A DNA stretch of 40,168 bases, from NCBI GenBank assembly GCA_000438255.1, contig FR901943.1, positions 1 through 40,168 on the forward strand. The letters run 5' to 3'. Position 1 is the first letter of the stretch. Each line of letters opens with the position of its first letter. Shown here one piece after another: positions 580 to 20,496 of the stretch. The position numbers were made by a program, and so were the translations under genes. The notes beneath the pieces are model-generated. The model was not told where the DNA came from. It searched no databases and saw only the letters and a list, made by a program, of their open reading frames with translations. This DNA is from Clostridium sp. CAG:389. GTDB lineage: Bacteria > Bacillota > Clostridia > TANB77 > CAG-508.

Positions 580-1962
580 TTAAAACTCAATTTTTTCTGC
601 AATCCAAGATTCCAAGTCATCAATTTTAACTCTAACTTGTTCCATTGTATCTCTATCTCTAACAGTAACTGATTCATCCTCCAATGTATCAAAATCAACA
701 GTTACGCAATATGGAGTACCAATTTCGTCCTCTCTTCTATAACGTTTACCAATTGAGCCCGCAGCATCATAATCACACATAAATTTCTTAGCAAGTTTAT
801 TATATACCTCTTCTGCTTTATCTGATAATTTTTTAGATAATGGAAGTACTGCAACTTTATAAGGTGCTAATGCTGGATGTAAATGTAAAACAATTCTTGT
901 ATCTCCTTCTGCAATTTCTTCTTCATCATATGCGTTGCATAAAAACGCTAGAACAACTCTATCTGCTCCTAATGATGGTTCAATTACATATGGTACATAT
1001 TTTTCGTTTGTTTCTGGGTCTTGATATGATAAATCTTGTTTTGAGTGATTCATATGTTGTGTTAAGTCATAATCAGTTCTATCAGCGATTCCCCATAATT
1101 CTCCCCATCCGAATGGGAATGCAAATTCTATATCAGTTGTTGCTTTACTATAAAATACCAATTCTTCTGCTGAATGGTCTCTTAATCTAATATTTTCTTT
1201 TTTCATTCCTAAATTGATTAAGAAGTTTTCACAATAATCTTTCCAATATTTATGCCATTCTAGGTCTGTTCCTGGCTTGCAGAAGAATTCAAGTTCCATT
1301 TGTTCAAATTCTCTTGTTCTAAATGTGAAGTTTCCTGGTGTTATTTCATTTCTGAATGCTTTACCTATTTGAGCAATTCCCATTGGCATTTTCTTTCTTG
1401 ATGTACGTAATACATTTTTGAAATCAACAAATATTCCTTGTGCTGTTTCTGGTCTTAAATATACAGTTGATGTTGTATCTTCTGTAACTCCTTGGAAAGT
1501 TTTGAACATTAAATTAAATTTTCTTATATCTGTAAAGTTTGTTTTTCCACATGATGGGCATGGTATTTTATTTTCGTTTATGAAATTGATTAATTCTTCA
1601 TCTGTCATTCCATCTGCTATCATGTCTTTTCCGTTTTCATGTGCCCATTCTTCAATTAATTTATCAGCTCTGTGTCTTGTTTTACATTCTTTACAATCTA
1701 TTAATGGGTCTGAAAATCCTCCAACATGTCCTGATGCTACCCATGTTTCTGGGTTCATTAATATTGCTGCATCAAGTCCTACTATATTTGGTTGCTCTTG
1801 TATGAATTTTTTTCTCCATGCTGCTTTTACATTGTTTTTTAATTCATTTCCTAATGGTCCATAATCCCAAGTATTTGCTAATCCTCCGTAAATTTCTGAT
1901 CCAGGATATATAAATCCTCTTCCTTTGCATAATGCTACAAGTGTGTCCATTGATTTTAACAT
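580..1962 (-). CDS. glyQS: glycine--tRNA ligase (single-chain class II GlyRS)
   Basis: 460-aa ORF with strings characteristic of GlyQS ([33 protein letters not shown]). SD GGGAGG lies 7 nt upstream of the ATG, and a Gly-specific T-box lies upstream. Confidence 0.95.
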
Positions 1963-1975
1963 AATGATTCCTCCC

Positions 1976-2100
1976 TTTTGAAACTGTTTTTGGGGACGGA
2001 GGAAAAAAACAGTTTTTAATTTATTTTATTTTTTACTATTATTTTGTTTTTGTATTTTCAAAACTGTTTTTTTCCTCCGTCCCCAAAAACAGTTTCAAAA
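1976..2100. repeat. 125-bp perfect palindromic element (41-bp arms, 43-nt AT loop), copy 1 of a repeated module
   Basis: 1976-2016 (TTTTGAAACTGTTTTTGGGGACGGAGGAAAAAAACAGTTTT) is the exact reverse complement of 2060-2100. The same 29-38 nt module recurs at 18700-18837. Confidence 0.9.
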
Positions 2101-2310
2101 AAACTTCCGAGCCTAGCTATACATTTAGCTAGGGACGAAAGTTTAGTTCCGCGTTTCCACCCTAATTCTTAAAGTTTTGCATAGCTTTTGCTTGCTATTG
2201 CCGTTCTTTAAGCACCTTAATTTTTTATTACTCCAAAGCTCCCCATACTTATTTTATTACGAATATCTCAGCATACTATTCGCTCTCTTTAAATAAAATT
2301 TTTAGTATTT
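2101..2310 (-). promoter_or_regulatory. T-box riboswitch leader, glycine specific (GGC specifier)
   Basis: Minus strand carries the conserved T-box sequence AATTAGGGTGGAAACGCGG (2167-2149) and an AGAGA box near 2300. The candidate specifier loop is GAACGGCAA, with GGC at 2202-2200. The terminator is AACTTTCGTCCCTAGC...GCTAGGCTCGGAAGTTTTTTT (2145-2101). Confidence 0.8.
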
Positions 2311-3300: not shown

Positions 3301-3843
3301 TTAATTGAAAAATTTGATGTCAAATTCTACCACGACAATTTGGCAGTCATCGGATATGTTTATATCCGATGATATAACGCCTTCATAAGCATTAAAGGTT
3401 TTCAACATCATATCAAAATCTTCTTCGAAAGTTGTTGTTTCTTCCGATAGATCTTTTTTAATTTTCATGAGGACTTTTGTATTTTCAGAAAATATTACTG
3501 CTACATTTTTTACATGATAGCAATTTAAGCCTACAGTTTCTTCACCAAATTCAAGTGAACTTGTACTAAACTTGTATCCTGAACTTTCCTCGTGATACAT
3601 CCACCATTTTTTGTCTATGTTTTGCAACAAGGCCTTACTCAAATCTGGCCATTTAATCATTCCAACCTCACCTTGCTCGTAGTCCACATCTACAACACTT
3701 GCAAGTGGATTTACATTTTCTTGGTAGTATGGGCATTTCTCTATTTTTCTTTTTGCATCATTGAAAACCTCAATAAATACCCGTTTCAATGTACTATTCA
3801 CCTTTCTTTTTTCTTCTTCTTGAAATTCTTCAAATGTCATCAT
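3301..3843 (-). CDS. hypothetical protein (about 180 aa), no recognisable domain
   Basis: Long ORF. I place the start at ATG 3843 (MMTFEEF...) because AGGAGG lies 7 nt upstream, so the ORF-track TTG extension reads through the RBS. It has its own consensus promoter and a downstream hairpin. Confidence 0.7.
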   Translation of the reverse strand: MMTFEEFQEEEKRKVNSTLKRVFIEVFNDAKRKIEKCPYYQENVNPLASVVDVDYEQGEVGMIKWPDLSKALLQNIDKKWWMYHEESSGYKFSTSSLEFGEETVGLNCYHVKNVAVIFSENTKVLMKIKKDLSEETTTFEEDFDMMLKTFNAYEGVISSDINISDDCQIVVVEFDIKFFN

Positions 3844-3942
3844 TCGTTTTCTCCTCCTTGCCAATTATGGCTATGATTTTATTTATTCTCCCACTAATCT
3901 GAGAGAGAATATCGCAGCTTGTTGTTTCAACTCACTTCTTTT

Positions 3943-4436: not shown

Positions 4437-5003
4437 TTATACTCTTTCCATATATTCACATGTTCTTGTATCGATTTTTAATATATCACCGATATTTACA
4501 AACATTGGAACTTGTAATTCTAATCCAGTTTCTAATGTTGCTGGTTTTCCAGATGTTGTTGTTGTGTTTCCAGCAAATCCTGGTTCTGTATATGTTACTT
4601 CTAATTCAACAAATGTTGGAGGTTCAACTGCAAATACTTTTCCTTTGTATGAAAGAATTGTAACTTCCATATTTTCTTTTAAGTATTTTAAGCAATCTCC
4701 TAATGTGTCTTTGTTTAAAGGCATTTGATCATATGTTTCATTATCCATAAAATAATATAAATCTCCATCTGCATATAGATATTGCATTGTTTTCTTTTCT
4801 ATTTCTGCTCCTGGGAATTTATCTGATGGGTTAAATGTTTTTTCTAATGTTGCCCCTGTTATTACATTTTTTAATTTTGTTCTTACAAATGCTGAACCTT
4901 TTCCTGGTTTTACGTGTTGGAATTCAACAACTCTGAATACGTTTCCTTCCATTTCAAATGTTGTTCCGTTTCTAAAATCTCCTGCTGAGTATACTCCTGC
5001 CAT
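4437..5003 (-). CDS. efp: elongation factor P
   Basis: 188-aa ORF with [19 protein letters not shown], the EF-P KPGKG loop. SD AAGGGAG lies upstream. Confidence 0.95.
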
Positions 5004-5186
5004 ATTTATTCTCCCTTCTCTTGCTTTGCTTGCTCATCGTCAGCACTAATGGCTGTCAAATTTTTTTTGCTTTGCTTCTCATAAATTTTATTTTTTACTT
5101 TTCTATTTTACTACATATTCTAGGAAAAATCAAGCTTTTTAAAAAATTTAGAGAATGTCCCAAAAAGATACGTTCCAAAAAGGACA

Positions 5187-6245
5187 TTATATAATTACAT
5201 ATCCTTTATCTGAATTGGTTAAACTTATACATCCAAATTTAGTTATTTGAACAGTATCTTCTATTCTAACTCCGAATTTTCCTGGAATATAAATTCCTGG
5301 TTCATCAGTAACTACCATGTTTTCTCTTAACATACAGTCATTTCTGTAACCAATATATGGAGGTTCATGTATTTCTAGACCAACTCCATGTCCTAAACTA
5401 TGAATTAAATCATATCTATTTAGTTTGAAATCATTTTCTACCATTTTTGTAAGTTGTCTTGTACTTGCTCCTTCTTTATATTGCTCAAGTGCAAATTTTT
5501 GATTATTTAAAACTAAATCATATACTTTTTTCATTTCTTCTGTTGGTTCTCCAACAAAAAATGTTCTTGTCATGTCTGAGCAATAGCCATTTACTTTGCA
5601 TCCCATGTCTATTGTTATAATATCTTTTTCTTGAATTTTTCTATCTGTTGGTACTGCATGTGGTTTTGATGAGTTTTCTCCTGATGCTACTATTGTGTCA
5701 AATGATATTCCATCTGTTCTTTCTATATAATAATCGTCTATTTCTTTTGCTATTTGTTTTTCTGTCATTCCTGGTTTTATATAACTTAATATATATTTAA
5801 AACAGTCATCTGTTATATTGCATGCTTTTATGATATTACTAATTTCTTCGTCATCTTTTATCATTCTTTGTTTTTCTATTATATATTCTGTTTCTACAAA
5901 ATTATGTATTTTGTATTTTCTTATATATTCTTTATATTCTGCATATGATATGTAGTGTTCTTCAAATCCTACATTTTCACAGTACATGAATATATTTTCA
6001 TAATCTTCTTTTGATAGGTCACTTGCGTCATATACTATGATTTCATCAAATAATGTTAATATACTATGTACATGTTCTATATATCTTCCATCTGTTATAT
6101 ACATATTTTCTTTTGGTGTTATTACTAATGTTCCTTCTGCATCTATGTTTGTTAAGTATTTTATATTTACTGGATTTGATATTATTATTCCTTGCATGTC
6201 TAGACTTGACATTTTATTTCTTAACCATTGAAGTTTTTGATTCAT
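5187..6245 (-). CDS. M24 family Xaa-Pro aminopeptidase
   Basis: 352-aa ORF with the metal-ligand context DMGCKVNGYCSDMTRTF, HSLGHGVGLEIHE and VTDEPGIY. The position upstream of efp is a common synteny. Confidence 0.9.
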   Translation of the reverse strand: MNQKLQWLRNKMSSLDMQGIIISNPVNIKYLTNIDAEGTLVITPKENMYITDGRYIEHVHSILTLFDEIIVYDASDLSKEDYENIFMYCENVGFEEHYISYAEYKEYIRKYKIHNFVETEYIIEKQRMIKDDEEISNIIKACNITDDCFKYILSYIKPGMTEKQIAKEIDDYYIERTDGISFDTIVASGENSSKPHAVPTDRKIQEKDIITIDMGCKVNGYCSDMTRTFFVGEPTEEMKKVYDLVLNNQKFALEQYKEGASTRQLTKMVENDFKLNRYDLIHSLGHGVGLEIHEPPYIGYRNDCMLRENMVVTDEPGIYIPGKFGVRIEDTVQITKFGCISLTNSDKGYVII

Positions 6246-11280: not shown

Positions 11281-11385
11281 ACTCCTTTCTTTTCACTTTT
11301 TGTCCTTTTTATCATTTTGTCCTTTTGGGGACGTTTCTTTTTGGGACTTTGTATATTTGGGTGATGACATTTCAGTAAATTTAGA

Positions 11386-13993: not shown

Positions 13994-14382
13994 TGTATTT
14001 TCTTCCTTTCCTTTTTCGTCTTTTTTGCACCATTTTTTAATTAATTCAAACATATTGTTTTCCTTTCTCTTTGCTTTTATTTGTTTTCTCTCATCCGGAA
14101 ACTTTAATAAGTTTTGAACATGATATTCACAATTAAAAGTAAAATATATTTATTTTAAATTTGAGCCGTATTTAGATTGTAACCTCTATAATATTCTGGT
14201 TTAATATTCAACCTTTTTTTCTTGAATATTAATATCTAGTTATAAATATTTGTGTGATATCCAGCACATTATACAAGCTACTTACCTAAATTCTTGGCTC
14301 TTTTTTCAACCATTGGGGACGTTGTTAAATTGGTTAATTTTCTATCTTTTTAGTTTTGTCCCTATGTGTTGACTTTTTCCAC

Positions 14383-16740: not shown

Positions 16741-18681
16741 TTATTTTCCCATATATTTTTCTAAAACAATAATAAACATAGCATGTGACCAACCAAGTCC
16801 TATTACCCAATTAGATTTTAAAGTTTCATTATCAACTTGCTCTCCTAAGAAATAATGTTTACCTGCTGTTTTGATAACAAAATCAAATGTTTCTTTTGCT
16901 TTTTTCTTTTCTCCTGTTTCTAAGTAATACAAAGTCATCCAAAGGTTTGCAATTGGCCAAGGATTACCATTCATATAATTATCATTTTCAAATCTTTGAT
17001 AGCCACCTGTATATGTCCTTAAACTCAAATTAATTCTTTCAACAGTGTTTTGAACTTTCTTTTCTTTTGGTTTAAATACTTCAAATGGTGTAACTGCACC
17101 GATTATACTTATGTCCATCTTTTTGTCTTCTGAATTTCTGATATATGATTTTTTTTCTTCGTCATACAAATATTTATTAATATATTTTTTTATTTCAAGT
17201 TGCAATTTTTCTATTTCTTTTTTTGATTTTTCAACTTTTTCTTGTTTTAATCTATTGTTTTCAAAATCTGATATATCTTTTCCTAATACATTATAAATTT
17301 TCAACATATTTTCAAATGCTGAATAAATGCTTGATAATGAGTATAAATGCACTCCTTCACACATTTCCCATAAATCATAACTTACATGATATTTATGTTC
17401 TCGTATATTTGTTTGACCTTCTTGTTCTTCATTTTTTAATGATGGTTCTATCCAATCTCTTATATATTTTTTTAAGAAATCTATTGCTTTTTCGCACATT
17501 TGCAAATTATCCTTTAAAAATTTTTCAGATTCTGTATATTTATAATGTTCATATACTCCAAAAACTACACTTGCTGTTTCATCAACTTGATATCCCCAAC
17601 AAGGAGCTAATTTACCATCTGTATAAAATCGCTGTTCCCACATTCCATTTTTGCTTTGTGTTTTTTGACAAAATACTTTGTAAAACTTTTCTGTCTCTTT
17701 ATTCATTTTTAAAATATCCATAGCTTTTGTCATAAATACTGCATCTCTTGGCCAGCAATATGCATATCTTCCACATTTAGTAAAATTTTCATCTATTTCA
17801 GGTGATGCTATAATTGCCCCTGTATCAGTATTTGTCAATAAAGGAAATAGTAAAATACTTCTCTTATAAATTTCATATATTCTTTCATCATAACTATTCT
17901 CAGGCTCTTTTATTTTCAAGCCATTATGATCTTTCACATATTTTCTCCAATATGATTTTGTATTAGTATATTCTTTGTCAAAATCAATTCTTTTAATTCT
18001 TTCGATTTCATCCTCAATATCAGATATATTCTTGTTTTCATCAATTAAAATTGTAATTTCTAGTTCTTTCTTCTCTCCCGGTTTTATTGTTCCAACTTCA
18101 TATGCAATTGATGTATCTTTTGACATTCCAATATAATCTTTATCATGTATTTCAGTTCTTTTTATATTCTCAATGCTACCATTTATCTGATGTTTTATTA
18201 TATCTTTTCCTTTTGCAAAAGTTGAAAATACAAAGTCATGTGCATATTGCATCATTCCACCATCAACAATTTTGCATCCTACAAAATTATTTGTATCTGA
18301 TAATAGTTCAGAATGAATATAAAATTGAGTATTTAAATCTATTTTTCCTTCATTTAAAAATGTATATCTTTTTAGTAATACATTTTCCTTAATTAATATA
18401 AAATCAGTTTGTACTATTTTTAAATTGAAGTATGTATTTGTTATTTCTGTATTTAATATATTTGTGTCTGTATCATAATATTGTTTGTATGTGTTATTTA
18501 TATCGTCATGTAAATATATTAAATCAGATTCATTTATTTTTACTCCTGTATGGAAATAATTTATATATTGTCTATTATCTTTGCTTGGAAAATATATTCT
18601 TTGCATTTCTCCTTTTGATGTAAATGTTGCTATTATTTTTTTATTTCCTATTATTGCTTCATTTAAATATTTGTTTTCCAT
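16741..18681 (-). CDS. glycoside hydrolase family 15 (glucoamylase/glucodextranase-like) protein
   Basis: 646-aa ORF with YCWPRDAVF and a C-terminal (alpha/alpha)6-type region (NLWMTLYY, GLGWSHAMF). The family assignment is from motif memory. Confidence 0.8.
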   Translation of the reverse strand: MENKYLNEAIIGNKKIIATFTSKGEMQRIYFPSKDNRQYINYFHTGVKINESDLIYLHDDINNTYKQYYDTDTNILNTEITNTYFNLKIVQTDFILIKENVLLKRYTFLNEGKIDLNTQFYIHSELLSDTNNFVGCKIVDGGMMQYAHDFVFSTFAKGKDIIKHQINGSIENIKRTEIHDKDYIGMSKDTSIAYEVGTIKPGEKKELEITILIDENKNISDIEDEIERIKRIDFDKEYTNTKSYWRKYVKDHNGLKIKEPENSYDERIYEIYKRSILLFPLLTNTDTGAIIASPEIDENFTKCGRYAYCWPRDAVFMTKAMDILKMNKETEKFYKVFCQKTQSKNGMWEQRFYTDGKLAPCWGYQVDETASVVFGVYEHYKYTESEKFLKDNLQMCEKAIDFLKKYIRDWIEPSLKNEEQEGQTNIREHKYHVSYDLWEMCEGVHLYSLSSIYSAFENMLKIYNVLGKDISDFENNRLKQEKVEKSKKEIEKLQLEIKKYINKYLYDEEKKSYIRNSEDKKMDISIIGAVTPFEVFKPKEKKVQNTVERINLSLRTYTGGYQRFENDNYMNGNPWPIANLWMTLYYLETGEKKKAKETFDFVIKTAGKHYFLGEQVDNETLKSNWVIGLGWSHAMFIIVLEKYMGK

Positions 18682-18699
18682 TTTTTTACCTTTCTAGAA

Positions 18700-18837
18700 C
18701 TGTTTTTGGGGACGGAGGAAAAAAACAGTTTTTAACTCAAATAATGTTACACGTTCAAGCCTATTTCTTATTAAATTGTAATTAAATAATATTTTTTTAA
18801 TTCAAAGACTGTTTTTTTCCTCCGTCCCCAAAAACAG
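18700..18837. repeat. 138-bp palindromic element (30-bp perfect arms, 78-nt loop), copy 2 of the repeated module
   Basis: 18700-18729 (CTGTTTTTGGGGACGGAGGAAAAAAACAGT) is the exact reverse complement of 18808-18837. The arms are identical to the core of 1976-2100, but the loop is unrelated. Confidence 0.9.
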
Positions 18838-18846
18838 CCTTAAATC

Positions 18847-20496
18847 TTATCCTTCAATTACATTCAAAATTTGTTTTTCTAATTCTTTAATTTTTTCATT
18901 AATTCTAAACACATCAGCATCTTTAAGCTCATTATTGTTGATATCAGATTTAACACTATTCTCCATATCGTCTATCTCAGCTTTTAATTTTTCTAATCTC
19001 TTCAATACTTCTGTTTTCATATTAACAGGTAATTTTTTATCAATTTTATGTGTTAATTTAACATCTTCATCTACATTTAATTCGTATGTTTCGCCATAGC
19101 TTGGAATTATAACAGGTAATTGAGCCTCATTTTCAATTTTTTGTCCAAGTACTTCTTGTGATTCTTCTTCTCCATGGATTAAAAATACTTGTTTTGGTTT
19201 CTTTCTAAATGAATATACAAAGTTCATTAGTCCGTCTTGATCTGCGTGTCCTGAATAGCCTTCTATATATTCAATTCTTGCATTTACTGCTATTTCTTCT
19301 CCAAATATTTTTACTCTTTTTGCTCCATTTACTATGCTATATCCTAATGTTCCTGGTGCTTGGTATCCTACAAATAATATAGTTGAATTTGGATTCCATA
19401 AGTTATGTTTTAAGTGATGTTTTATCCTTCCTACATCACACATTCCACTTGCTGATATTATTATACATGGTTCTGGATTTTCATTTAATGCTTTTGATTC
19501 ATCTGCTGTTGTTGTAAATTTTAGTCCTGGAAATTCAAGTGGATGGTCTCCTTTTCTGATTTCTTCTTGTGTTTCTTCGTCAAATAAATCCATATTTTCT
19601 TTAAATACTTCTGTTGCTGATATTGCAAGTGGGCTGTCTACATATACTGGTGCTTTCATTAATTTTTCATACTCATGTATGAATTTTTCGTCATCTTTTG
19701 TTTCTTTTATTTTATTTAATTCATATAATATTTCTTGTGTTCTTCCTACTGCAAATGATGGTATTACAACAGTTCCTTTATTATCAAGTGTTTCTGATAC
19801 TATATCCAAAAACATTTCTGCTTTTTTGTCATTTTTTATATGTTTTCTGCTTCCATATGTTGATTCCATTACTAAGAAGTCTGCATCTTCTATCATTGTT
19901 GGTTCACTTAATAATGGTATGTCATTATTTCCTAAGTCTCCTGTGAAAACTGTTTTTGTTTGTTTTCCATTTTCATTTACCCATAATTCTATAACACTTG
20001 AACCTAACATATGTCCTGCATCATTGAATCTTACATGTATGTCTGGTGTTATGTCTATAATTTGGTCGTATTGTACTGGTTCAAATATCTCTAAACATCT
20101 TGCTGCTTGTTCTGCTGTGTATAATGGTTCTCTGGCTTCTAGTCCTTTTCTCATTCTTTTTCTGTTTTTCCATTCATTTTCCATTTCTTGAATGTGTCCA
20201 CTGTCTGGTAACATTAGTGCACATAAATCACATGTTGCTTTGTGTGCATATATTTTATTTTTGAATCCTTCATTATATAGTTTTGGTATTCTTCCTGAAT
20301 GGTCAATGTGTGCGTGTGTTAATAACATAAAATCTATTTCTGATGGATTAAAATCAAATTCATCAAAATTTTCTTCTTCTAGTTCTTTTCTTCCTTGCCA
20401 CATTCCACAATCTACTAAAAATTTTTTTCCTGCGGCTTCTACTAAGTAATTTGAGCCTGTTACTGTTTTTGTTGCTCCTAAAAATGTGATTTTCAT
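18847..20496 (-). CDS. MBL-fold beta-CASP family hydrolase (RNA-metabolising nuclease type) with C-terminal coiled-coil tail
   Basis: 549-aa ORF with the metallo-beta-lactamase motif HAHIDHSG, FTGDLG and GYSGHADQ. SD AAGGAGG lies upstream. Confidence 0.85.
   Translation of the reverse strand: MKITFLGATKTVTGSNYLVEAAGKKFLVDCGMWQGRKELEEENFDEFDFNPSEIDFMLLTHAHIDHSGRIPKLYNEGFKNKIYAHKATCDLCALMLPDSGHIQEMENEWKNRKRMRKGLEAREPLYTAEQAARCLEIFEPVQYDQIIDITPDIHVRFNDAGHMLGSSVIELWVNENGKQTKTVFTGDLGNNDIPLLSEPTMIEDADFLVMESTYGSRKHIKNDKKAEMFLDIVSETLDNKGTVVIPSFAVGRTQEILYELNKIKETKDDEKFIHEYEKLMKAPVYVDSPLAISATEVFKENMDLFDEETQEEIRKGDHPLEFPGLKFTTTADESKALNENPEPCIIISASGMCDVGRIKHHLKHNLWNPNSTILFVGYQAPGTLGYSIVNGAKRVKIFGEEIAVNARIEYIEGYSGHADQDGLMNFVYSFRKKPKQVFLIHGEEESQEVLGQKIENEAQLPVIIPSYGETYELNVDEDVKLTHKIDKKLPVNMKTEVLKRLEKLKAEIDDMENSVKSDINNNELKDADVFRINEKIKELEKQILNVIEG

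Follow-up and report, generated by a model that had tools for sequence, protein, structure and literature searches.

A palindrome in the glyQS leader of Clostridium sp. CAG:389 is very probably a REPIN of a dispersed hairpin family partnered with a RAYT-like Y1 protein

Introduction

Systems of repetitive extragenic palindromic (REP) sequences and REP-associated tyrosine transposases (RAYTs) are defined by a hairpin repeat, by head-to-head doublets of about 100 bp (REP doublets forming hairpins, REPINs), by an extragenic location and by a Y1 gene that sits in a fixed slot and is bracketed by the repeat (PMC3333891, PMC3116915, PMC5581495, bioRxiv 10.1101/2021.07.10.451892). The canonical rules for a REP ask for a GTAG or GTGG foot, a G+C-rich stem and a loop of 2–5 nt (PMC6006769; cf. 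PMC3733652). Here we describe a 125-bp palindrome in the leader of glyQS, the gene for glycine--tRNA ligase (GlyRS), in a 40,168-nt stretch of the genome of Clostridium sp. CAG:389 (contig FR901943.1, positions 1 to 40,168; hereafter the window). We regard it as very probable that this palindrome is a REPIN of a hairpin family partnered with a RAYT-like Y1 protein, and that it was inserted in the glyQS leader.

Excerpts of the GTAG and CGTC surveys make no mention of Firmicutes or Clostridia (PMC3733652). Bertels et al. found Group 1 RAYTs in Clostridia and a strong repeat association for Groups 2 and 3 only (PMC5581495), and according to Quentin et al. 2018 the TnpA-Y1 subclasses with a large C-terminal domain are not REP-associated (PMC6006769). 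The REP rules of the latter authors would have missed the hairpins of the family described below, which have a 13-nt loop.

The closest described systems are the REP, BIME (bacterial interspersed mosaic element) and REPIN–RAYT systems of Proteobacteria, such as the E. coli REPtron with rayT/yafM and the Pseudomonas fluorescens REPINs (PMC3333891, PMC3116915, PMC5581495, PMC6006769). Like them, the Clostridial family has a short extragenic repeat that folds into a hairpin and pairs up head to head, the doublets measuring about 100 bp and folding into a larger hairpin; inverted copies bracket an HUH/Tyr Y1 gene, which in most of the related lineages occupies the same extragenic slot; plasmid and phage copies are lacking, and in-frame copies are occasionally present inside genes. 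Its Y1 protein is closest, in sequence and in fold, to the TnpA-REP structure 4ER8. The family differs in its host, Clostridia instead of Proteobacteria, in the strong strand-specific placement of the hairpins after stop codons, and in its protein, of which about 90 aa form an additional helical domain at the C-terminus. The hairpin also departs from the canonical REP in its conserved 13-nt loop and its A/T stem (TTTT/AAAA beside the loop).

Other elements resemble the locus in part. The IS200/IS605 insertion sequences (IS608, ISDra2) and the non-autonomous elements derived from them, the palindrome-associated transposable elements (PATEs), likewise have a Y1 HUH enzyme, recognition of a subterminal hairpin in single-stranded DNA (ssDNA) and no target-site duplication; however, the ends of these insertion sequences are not mutual inverted repeats and their transposase is multi-copy and moves with its ends, whereas the Clostridial flanking hairpins are inverted, the gene lies in one syntenic slot in most lineages and the IS200 scores are far lower (18–29 bits). 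The Rickettsia palindromic elements (RPEs) are also found in frame within protein genes. Head-to-head dimers dominate among the CGTC-tagged REPs as well (Di Nocera et al. 2013, PMC3733652), but these have 4–5-nt loops, a terminal CGTC tag and no known transposase, whereas here GACG lies within the 13-nt loop, is not universal, and a cognate Y1 gene exists. Finally, the Neisseria Correia elements (Correia repeat enclosed elements, CREE) and DDE miniature inverted-repeat transposable elements (MITEs) in 5' untranslated regions are small palindromic repeats in mRNA leaders whose long RNA duplex can be a substrate of RNase III; Correia elements have TA target duplications, functional promoter or IHF sites and no Y1 partner, and none of these TA duplications, promoters or IHF sites is seen at the Clostridial element.

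Results

Two inverted hairpins between the glyQS terminator and Shine-Dalgarno sequence

The glyQS open reading frame (ORF 580–1962, minus strand; NF003211, 703 bits) is preceded by a glyQS-type T-box leader at 2128–2331 on the same strand (RF00230, 71.7 bits, E 1.2e-15, model positions 1–219). This match spans the full model but lacks the stem II region and falls short of the gathering score (93). A tRNA-Trp lies just upstream of the leader. The T-box terminator hairpin with its U-tract, recognised by its inverted repeat, the Rfam alignment and the fold, occupies 2101–2144 (minus strand; arms at 2101–2119 and 2126–2144), and the Shine-Dalgarno (SD) sequence GGGAGG and the AUG of glyQS are found at 1970–1975 and 1960–1962, both unpaired in the predicted RNA fold of this segment (1960–1975, minus strand).

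The palindrome fills positions 1976–2100. Re-measurement bore out the initial annotation, which had been made from the letters alone: 1976–2016 is the exact reverse complement of 2060–2100, giving 41-bp arms with no mismatch around a 43-nt loop (2017–2059, 91% A+T), and a repeat search stretches the arms to 44 nt at 98% complementarity (one mismatch). Each arm had also been described as self-complementary, and a single arm indeed folds on its own as ssDNA into an 11-bp stem with a 13-nt loop (−7.5 kcal/mol, z about −4). The covariance model R1 of the hairpin family places the left hairpin at 1981–2015 on the plus strand (56.5 bits, E 5.5e-11; stem AAACTGTTTTT/AAAAACAGTTT, loop GGGGACGGAGGAA) and the right one, its exact reverse complement, at 2061–2095 on the minus strand (56.5 bits); an A/T-rich spacer (2016–2060) separates them. 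The outer 4 bp of each arm (TTTT, 1976–1979, and AAAA, 2097–2100) are probably pre-existing target flank because the same T-run/A-run is present at the empty site of a relative (see below), so that the sequence comparison puts the element proper at about 1980–2096. On the minus-strand RNA the element starts directly past the U-tract of the terminator, as had been noted; its other end lies 4 nt short of the SD sequence GGGAGG.

Rfam scans (gathering and E-value thresholds) gave no known RNA family covering the arm. The matches in the window were tRNA, the sub-threshold T-box and plant and animal miRNA-precursor models, the last being spurious and due to the long hairpin. A literature string search with the loop sequence returned unrelated primers only.

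The window contains four occurrences of the 29-mer core of the arm, where shuffles give an expectation of 0, and a search of the window with R1, filters off, detected exactly these four hairpins and no degenerate or weaker extra copies. The other two form a second doublet, REPIN 2 (about 18697–18840), so the recurrence of the module at 18700–18837 beside a ribosome-binding site, reported in the initial annotation, is real. Its left hairpin (18697–18731, plus strand, 54.7 bits) adjoins the SD sequence of a glucoamylase-like ORF (16741–18681, minus strand), and its right hairpin (18806–18840, minus strand, 52.9 bits) is in the sense orientation relative to a beta-CASP ORF (18847–20496, minus strand), its loop beginning 17 nt past the stop of that ORF. 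The arm cores are identical to those of the doublet at glyQS (REPIN 1), and the spacers differ in sequence and in length, that of REPIN 2 being longer and unrelated. The two doublets could form duplexes of 41 bp (REPIN 1) and about 30 bp (REPIN 2).

The element is missing from the glyQS leaders of relatives

The element is present in all six metagenome contigs whose GlyRS is identical to that of the window, and it is missing from every other glyQS leader inspected, in relatives with 74–96% identical GlyRS. In the loci L132, L133 and L139 (L numbers refer to fetched loci) the T-box, the terminator, a short spacer and the SD sequence are present without the element. Other repeats fill the terminator-to-SD spacer elsewhere: an unrelated direct-repeat insert of about 230 nt in L126/L127, whose GlyRS is 90% identical, an unrelated perfect palindrome of about 60 nt in L130 (about 2400–2470) and another unrelated repeat in L137, upstream of position 985. 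From these sequences the spacer appears to be a permissive, recurrent landing site. The insert of L126/L127 (about 2270–2490) is a direct repeat of about 100 nt, present twice and containing AAATTGTTCATCTTAYG...GCTGGCAACTTATAAAA.

A further relative is L125 (contig OIYO01001421.1), with 96% identical GlyRS. Its leader reads ...GAAAGTTTTTTT/AAAAATTGGAGGG...ATG (the slash marks the junction), and that of the window reads ...GGAAGTTTTTTT, then the element (GAAACTG...CAGTTTC), then AAAAGGGAGG...ATG. The comparison of the two sequences makes L125 a clean empty site and gives no target-site duplication. The initial annotation had proposed aligning orthologous leaders in search of empty sites and target-site duplications; the former was found and the latter was not. 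Positions 1906–2512 of L125 contain, in this order, tmRNA, tRNA-Trp, the 5' half of the terminator hairpin, the U-tract, the SD sequence and glyQS, and no T-box was found there by Rfam at E <= 0.01. Judging from the sequence, stem I through the antiterminator seems to have been deleted and the terminator kept, an arrangement that makes the expression of glyQS at this locus puzzling.

Predicted effects on the glyQS transcript

The predicted RNA fold of region 1950–2150 (minus strand) has a minimum free energy of −86.8 kcal/mol (z −15). In the full-length predicted fold the 41-bp hairpin is added, the terminator is kept and the SD sequence and AUG are unpaired; because these elements stay intact, the insertion looks tolerated rather than functional. 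When the 5' arm was removed, the minimum free energy fold paired UUCCUCC with GGGAGGA, with the stability of shuffled controls (z about 0). Occlusion of the SD sequence by the proximal CCUCC, which had been suggested for transcripts without the distal arm, is predicted for that case only, by a fold no better than that of shuffles. A dedicated regulatory role of the palindrome is unsupported; cleavage by RNase III or 5' stabilisation by the 41-bp duplex are possible as incidental side effects of the modelled structure.

A dispersed hairpin family with a covarying stem

We scanned for the family with the exact 19-mer TTTTGGGGACGGAGGAAAA, taking one genome per species, and called ORFs mechanically. 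This search pattern fixes the loop and the inner TTTT/AAAA, leaving the outer stem as the sole informative part; loop variation is shown independently by the hairpins flanking RAYT-like genes. Among the matches listed, the 19-mer is carried by more than 118 8-kb stretches from about 45 metagenome-assembled genomes (MAGs) or assemblies, nearly all of them Clostridia or Clostridium sp. from the gut of sheep, rabbit, chicken, mouse and human, with at least nine blocks in each of two MAGs. The further copies for which the initial annotation had proposed to search thus exist in number. No copies were found in 2.9 million viral contigs or in phage and plasmid collections, and 147 of the 166 listed copies are extragenic (outside ORFs of at least 90 aa). 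The family is chromosomal and dispersed in a low-GC gut Clostridia lineage.

The unit is a 35-nt hairpin with an A/T-rich stem of about 9 bp and a 13-nt loop, GGGGACGGAGGAA, which carries conserved sequence. Stems are uniform inside one genome and differ between genomes by compensatory changes (for example CATGATTTT/AAAATCATG, CTTGTTTTT/AAAAACAAG, GGTTACTTTT/AAAAGTAACC and GAAATTTT/AAAATTTC). In 28 representatives 87.7% of the stem cells are paired, compared with 72.7% for shuffles, and two-sided changes occur in 8 of 12 pairs. The covariation score of 0.342 exceeds that of shuffles (0.106; none of 500 reaches 0.342) and of slid controls (at most 0.115). Examples of covarying pairs are 8/30 (AU14/UA9/CG2) and 4/34 (AU8/GC8/CG6). 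Beyond about 9 bp (pairs 1–3) the positions are unconserved and paired no better than in shuffled controls.

Among the listed copies, all 35 doublets are head-to-head, with the G-rich loop first and then the C-loop on either strand, and span 48–133 nt; solo arms are about as frequent as doublets.

Several variants of the hairpin were seen. A partial tandem duplication of the 5' stem and the first 3–7 loop bases, for example TGATTTTGGG followed by TGATTTTGGGGACGG, occurs in L035, L088, L108, L066, L113, L040, L091 and L034, and may mark the cleavage or joining point. Hairpins inside genes, always in frame 0, are translated as HDFGDGGKNH in UvrC (L082, about 5160–5230; L107, about 4620–4690) and in a protein with a GH94 domain (L085, about 3790–3860, 1818 aa; L111, about 460–530), and each of these insertions is at orthologous positions in two species. 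In the cultured Fusibacter tunisiensis DSM 24436, which may give an experimental entry point, one 8-kb stretch (L079; NZ_JAFBDT010000005.1, 72001–80000) holds four hairpin-like repeats with the GGGGACGGAGG loop motif; at least three of them are followed by GGACCC(C/A)TGACCTG, and, their architecture being different, they are candidate relatives of the family.

A Y1 gene bracketed by the hairpins

With E. coli RayT as the query, phmmer picked out an ORF in L017 from all ORFs of the fetched loci, and this ORF, used as a query, led in turn to one in L037. In L037, from a mouse-gut Clostridia MAG, a 253-aa Y1 ORF lies between an ABC-F ATPase gene and tex; a sense hairpin immediately follows the stop codon of the ABC-F gene, and an inverted one closely precedes the SD sequence of tex. 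At the orthologous junction of L061 only a solo hairpin is present. Database searches gave 1630 homologues at E <= 1e-5, mostly of 245–260 aa among the matches listed. We then inspected contigs of eleven further lineages, and all had a sense hairpin upstream and an inverted hairpin downstream of the Y1 gene (the hairpin-flanked loci are L037, L206, L209–L214, L216–L218, L220 and L222–L225). The ABC-F...tex slot is used in most Y1 lineages; P0118 and P0156 sit elsewhere. This bracketing of a Y1 gene by hairpins is the REPtron arrangement, and the gene looks single-copy.

The loop sequence varies along with the lineage of the protein (GGGGACGGAGG, GGGGTCGGAGAC, GGGGCCGGAGC, GGGGACGGGGC). It is GGGGACGGAGGAA in L037, L206 and L222, GGGGTCGGAGACA in L209–L214, GGGGCCGGAGCAA / GGGGACGGAGCAA in L216/L217 and L220, GGGGACGGGGCAA in L224 and GGGACGGGGTCAA in L223. 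The core conserved among the RAYT-like flanks is GGGGNCGGRG; the SD-like GGAGG is not universal. The idea of the loop as a conserved SD sequence, standby site or CsrA-type GGA site was set aside: sister lineages have GGAGA, GGAGC or GGGGC in place of GGAGG. Upstream of the RAYT-like gene, the partial tandem duplication is polymorphic between contigs that encode an identical protein (L211/L213 versus L210/L212).

The HUH (NHAHLL) and Tyr (YIHxNPV; YxxxNPV) motifs of the Y1 protein align with those of E. coli RayT. The proteins of L017 and L037 score 50–55 bits with Pfam Y1_Tnp, and 29 and 18.5 bits with the IS200 model, whose cut-off is 55. Although phmmer with one Clostridial Y1 protein gave no match in the PDB, the best PDB match of the family profile is TnpA-REP (4ER8, E 1.5e-5), compared with 0.08 for ISDra2 TnpA. 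The AlphaFold model (pLDDT 89.1) likewise has 4ER8_A, a RAYT–REP hairpin complex, as its best Foldseek match (E 4.8e-6, TMt 0.67), with the IS608 and ISDra2 transposases behind it (E 3e-4 or weaker). The evidence leans clearly toward a RAYT rather than an IS200/IS605 TnpA, but the protein stays below the curated NCBIfam cut-off for REP_Tyr_transpos. The C-terminal residues, about 90 in number, form an extra helical domain in the AlphaFold model, with a weak S25/winged-helix match.

The L017 ORF (1636–2235; 169 aa, RAYT-like) comes from a Spirochaetales MAG (SPDA01000263.1, 48% GC), thus from a host of a different phylum; the loop motif is found 72 nt upstream, with no inverted counterpart on the downstream side. 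These features hint that the loop/protein pair is older or has been shared horizontally.

The hairpins follow stop codons in the sense orientation

Of the hairpins located at most 25 nt after the stop of an ORF of at least 100 aa, 64 have the G-rich loop on the sense strand and 3 on the antisense strand; for solo hairpins alone the counts are 34 and 3 (p about 1e-7). For eight hairpins the TGA within the stem CATGATTTT serves as the stop codon, and for another eight the ORF continues through the hairpin and ends directly behind it. Between convergent genes, a solo hairpin adjoins the gene whose sense strand it shares, meaning that replication orientation alone does not explain the bias. The bias may arise if insertion is directed to the non-template strand exposed by transcription, if free CCUCC loops in mRNA are selected against, or if the host uses the hairpin at 3' ends. 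REPs of E. coli at most about 15 nt from a stop codon reportedly reduce translation through ribosome stalling, a finding attributed to Liang, Rudd and Deutscher in 2015. SECIS-like, read-through and attC-like readings of the hairpin after the stop were discarded, as the ORFs have normal ends and housekeeping genes for neighbours, and cassette arrays are absent.

In two loci the repeat lies at the start of a gene. A hairpin lacking its 3' stem in L061 (about 3850–3900) has its loop GGAGG followed by AAAACA and ATG, and this GGAGG is the apparent SD sequence of tex; in L049 (about 2400–2450), GGAGGAAAAAATCATG seemingly supplies both the SD sequence and the start codon of an Obg-like ORF (MFIDYTKII...). 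By their sequences, both look like repeats co-opted as ribosome-binding sites.

Other hairpins and genes of the window

Three hairpins of the window with a GGGGACGTT loop (5149–5186, 11318–11355 and about 14305–14345) are unmatched by R1; they lie after the stop of an M24 peptidase gene, ahead of pheS and in the rpsO–pnp interval, an example being TGTCC...GGACA enclosing CAAAAAGAWACGTYCCMAAAA. Similar hairpins (GAACTTTGGGGACGTTCCTTAAAGTTC) are found in the MAG loci L090, L096 and L109, and this type may be a second repeat family. The beta-CASP/MBL ORF 18847–20496 (549 aa) matches NCBIfam cas14_MBL_CASP (type VII CRISPR Cas14) with 463 bits, against a cut-off of 800, and aCPSF1 with 313 bits; no CRISPR context was seen, and it is probably a housekeeping beta-CASP RNase.

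Discussion

The suggestion that a small non-autonomous palindromic repeat had been inserted in the leader holds in the form of a REP doublet tied to a REP-type Y1 protein; the Correia-like DDE MITE that it also allowed for does not, as there is no target-site duplication and only Y1 genes are bracketed. Indirect signs of mobility are the presence or absence of the element at glyQS among relatives and the polymorphic partial duplication upstream of the RAYT-like gene. Mobilisation is most likely to occur in trans, as ssDNA, through the Y1 protein. By analogy with E. coli TnpA-REP and IS200/IS605 TnpA, this protein would recognise the hairpin folded in ssDNA, the main determinant probably being the loop GGGGNCGGRG, and would cleave and rejoin DNA, copying hairpins or doublets to new extragenic sites with no target-site duplication. 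One such event would have put a doublet into the spacer between the glyQS T-box terminator and the SD sequence, in this species only. The insertion would be tolerated, leaving the terminator, antiterminator, SD sequence and AUG intact, and the mRNA would gain, 4 nt before the SD sequence, a 41-bp hairpin of very high stability, possibly with an incidental effect on processing or stability.

Several observations weigh against assigning the palindrome to a REPIN–RAYT system. The family hairpins have neither the GTAG/GTGG foot nor the G+C-rich stem and 2–5-nt loop of canonical REPs. With the NCBIfam model NF047646 (REP_Tyr_transpos) the L017 and L037 proteins score 78.1 and 72.9 bits, just under the cut-off of 80. 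The window holds no Y1 ORF and the transposase gene of its own genome was not recovered; the loci of P0152, P0156, P0126 and P0125 turned out to be other lineages, hairpin-flanked again, and the one with the CTGTTTTT stem of the window species was not among them. No strain-level polymorphism is seen at glyQS, all six contigs with identical GlyRS having the element. Lastly, the unrelated spacers of the two copies in the window mean that the doublet is perhaps not the replicating unit in this genome.

The most serious competitor is a host-level RNA function at mRNA 3' ends or intercistronic regions, through shielding of the transcript from 3' exonucleases, a link with translation termination, a GGA/GGAGG-rich loop that binds a protein or the 30S subunit, or supply of an SD sequence; the Y1 protein would then be a domesticated disseminator and the glyQS copy a stabiliser or processing site. 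The sense bias after stops, for all hairpins and for solos, fits such a function, as do the solo hairpins of convergent pairs beside the gene whose sense strand they share, the positions kept between species (L061/L037/L206, L082/L107 and L085/L111), the apparent SD sequences of tex and obg and the high stability of the 41-bp RNA duplex. However, the loop GGAGG is not conserved across lineages, there is no upstream ORF at the glyQS copy, relatives manage without the element at glyQS, and the stop-codon bias could reflect insertion targeting together with purifying selection in a compact genome; we consider this explanation unlikely. Narrower still is the proposal of the initial annotation that the palindrome is a second regulatory layer specific to glyQS, acting after T-box read-through by RNase III cleavage or by the CCUCC arm occluding the SD sequence. 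A perfect 41-bp duplex 4 nt from the SD sequence, the UUCCUCC–GGGAGGA pairing predicted when the 5' arm is removed and the presence of the element in all six contigs of the species speak for it. Yet every other glyQS leader examined lacks the element, including that with 96% identical GlyRS, an identical module lies at an unrelated gene, other repeats fill the same spacer in relatives, the occluding fold has the stability of shuffled sequence, and the full-length fold leaves the terminator and the SD sequence free. We consider this proposal improbable.

Two further readings concern the origin of the palindrome. A classical MITE, that is a deletion derivative of a DDE insertion sequence with terminal inverted repeats (Correia/ERIC-like) and cut-and-paste movement, would account for inverted terminal arms around a variable core and for a size of about 120 bp. 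It is highly improbable, for the filled and empty sites differ without a target-site duplication, solo arms are about as common as doublets, the arms are themselves hairpins whose stems covary, the only bracketed protein found is a Y1 HUH enzyme (11 of 11 lineages), and no DDE transposase was seen beside copies. As to an intrinsic, conserved part of this T-box leader class, only the position directly after the terminator favours it. The initial annotation had pictured for that case a stem present in all glyQS leaders and no further copies; what we find is clearly the opposite, with the leaders of L126/127, L130–133, L137 and L139 lacking the element and copies dispersed over many unrelated loci (more than 118 8-kb stretches listed). 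Relatives and dispersal have already refuted this reading, to which we leave next to no probability, and an attenuator or T-box extension was ruled out by the same leaders of relatives.

With the palindrome read as a REPIN, the glyQS leader carries a passenger repeat and no new T-box module, and no regulation should be annotated there without data. REPIN/RAYT-type systems, described mainly in Proteobacteria, would be extended to a Bacillota lineage, with an atypical repeat in which the loop, and not the foot, tracks the transposase. The natural protein/hairpin pairs make a series for learning how HUH enzymes read hairpins. More tentatively, these data may point to an unrecognised class of REPtron in uncultured gut Clostridia, with a GGGGNCGGRG element that is read by its loop and co-diversifies with the transposase, a C-terminal helical, possibly winged-helix, domain, and a strand-specific placement within about 25 nt after stops. 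The 64:3 sense bias is a clue to how targets are found or how the host uses the hairpins; if such a class exists, this placement would mean either that insertion is coupled to transcription or translation, for example through the exposed non-template strand, or that the host uses the hairpins at mRNA 3' ends or as spare SD sequences.

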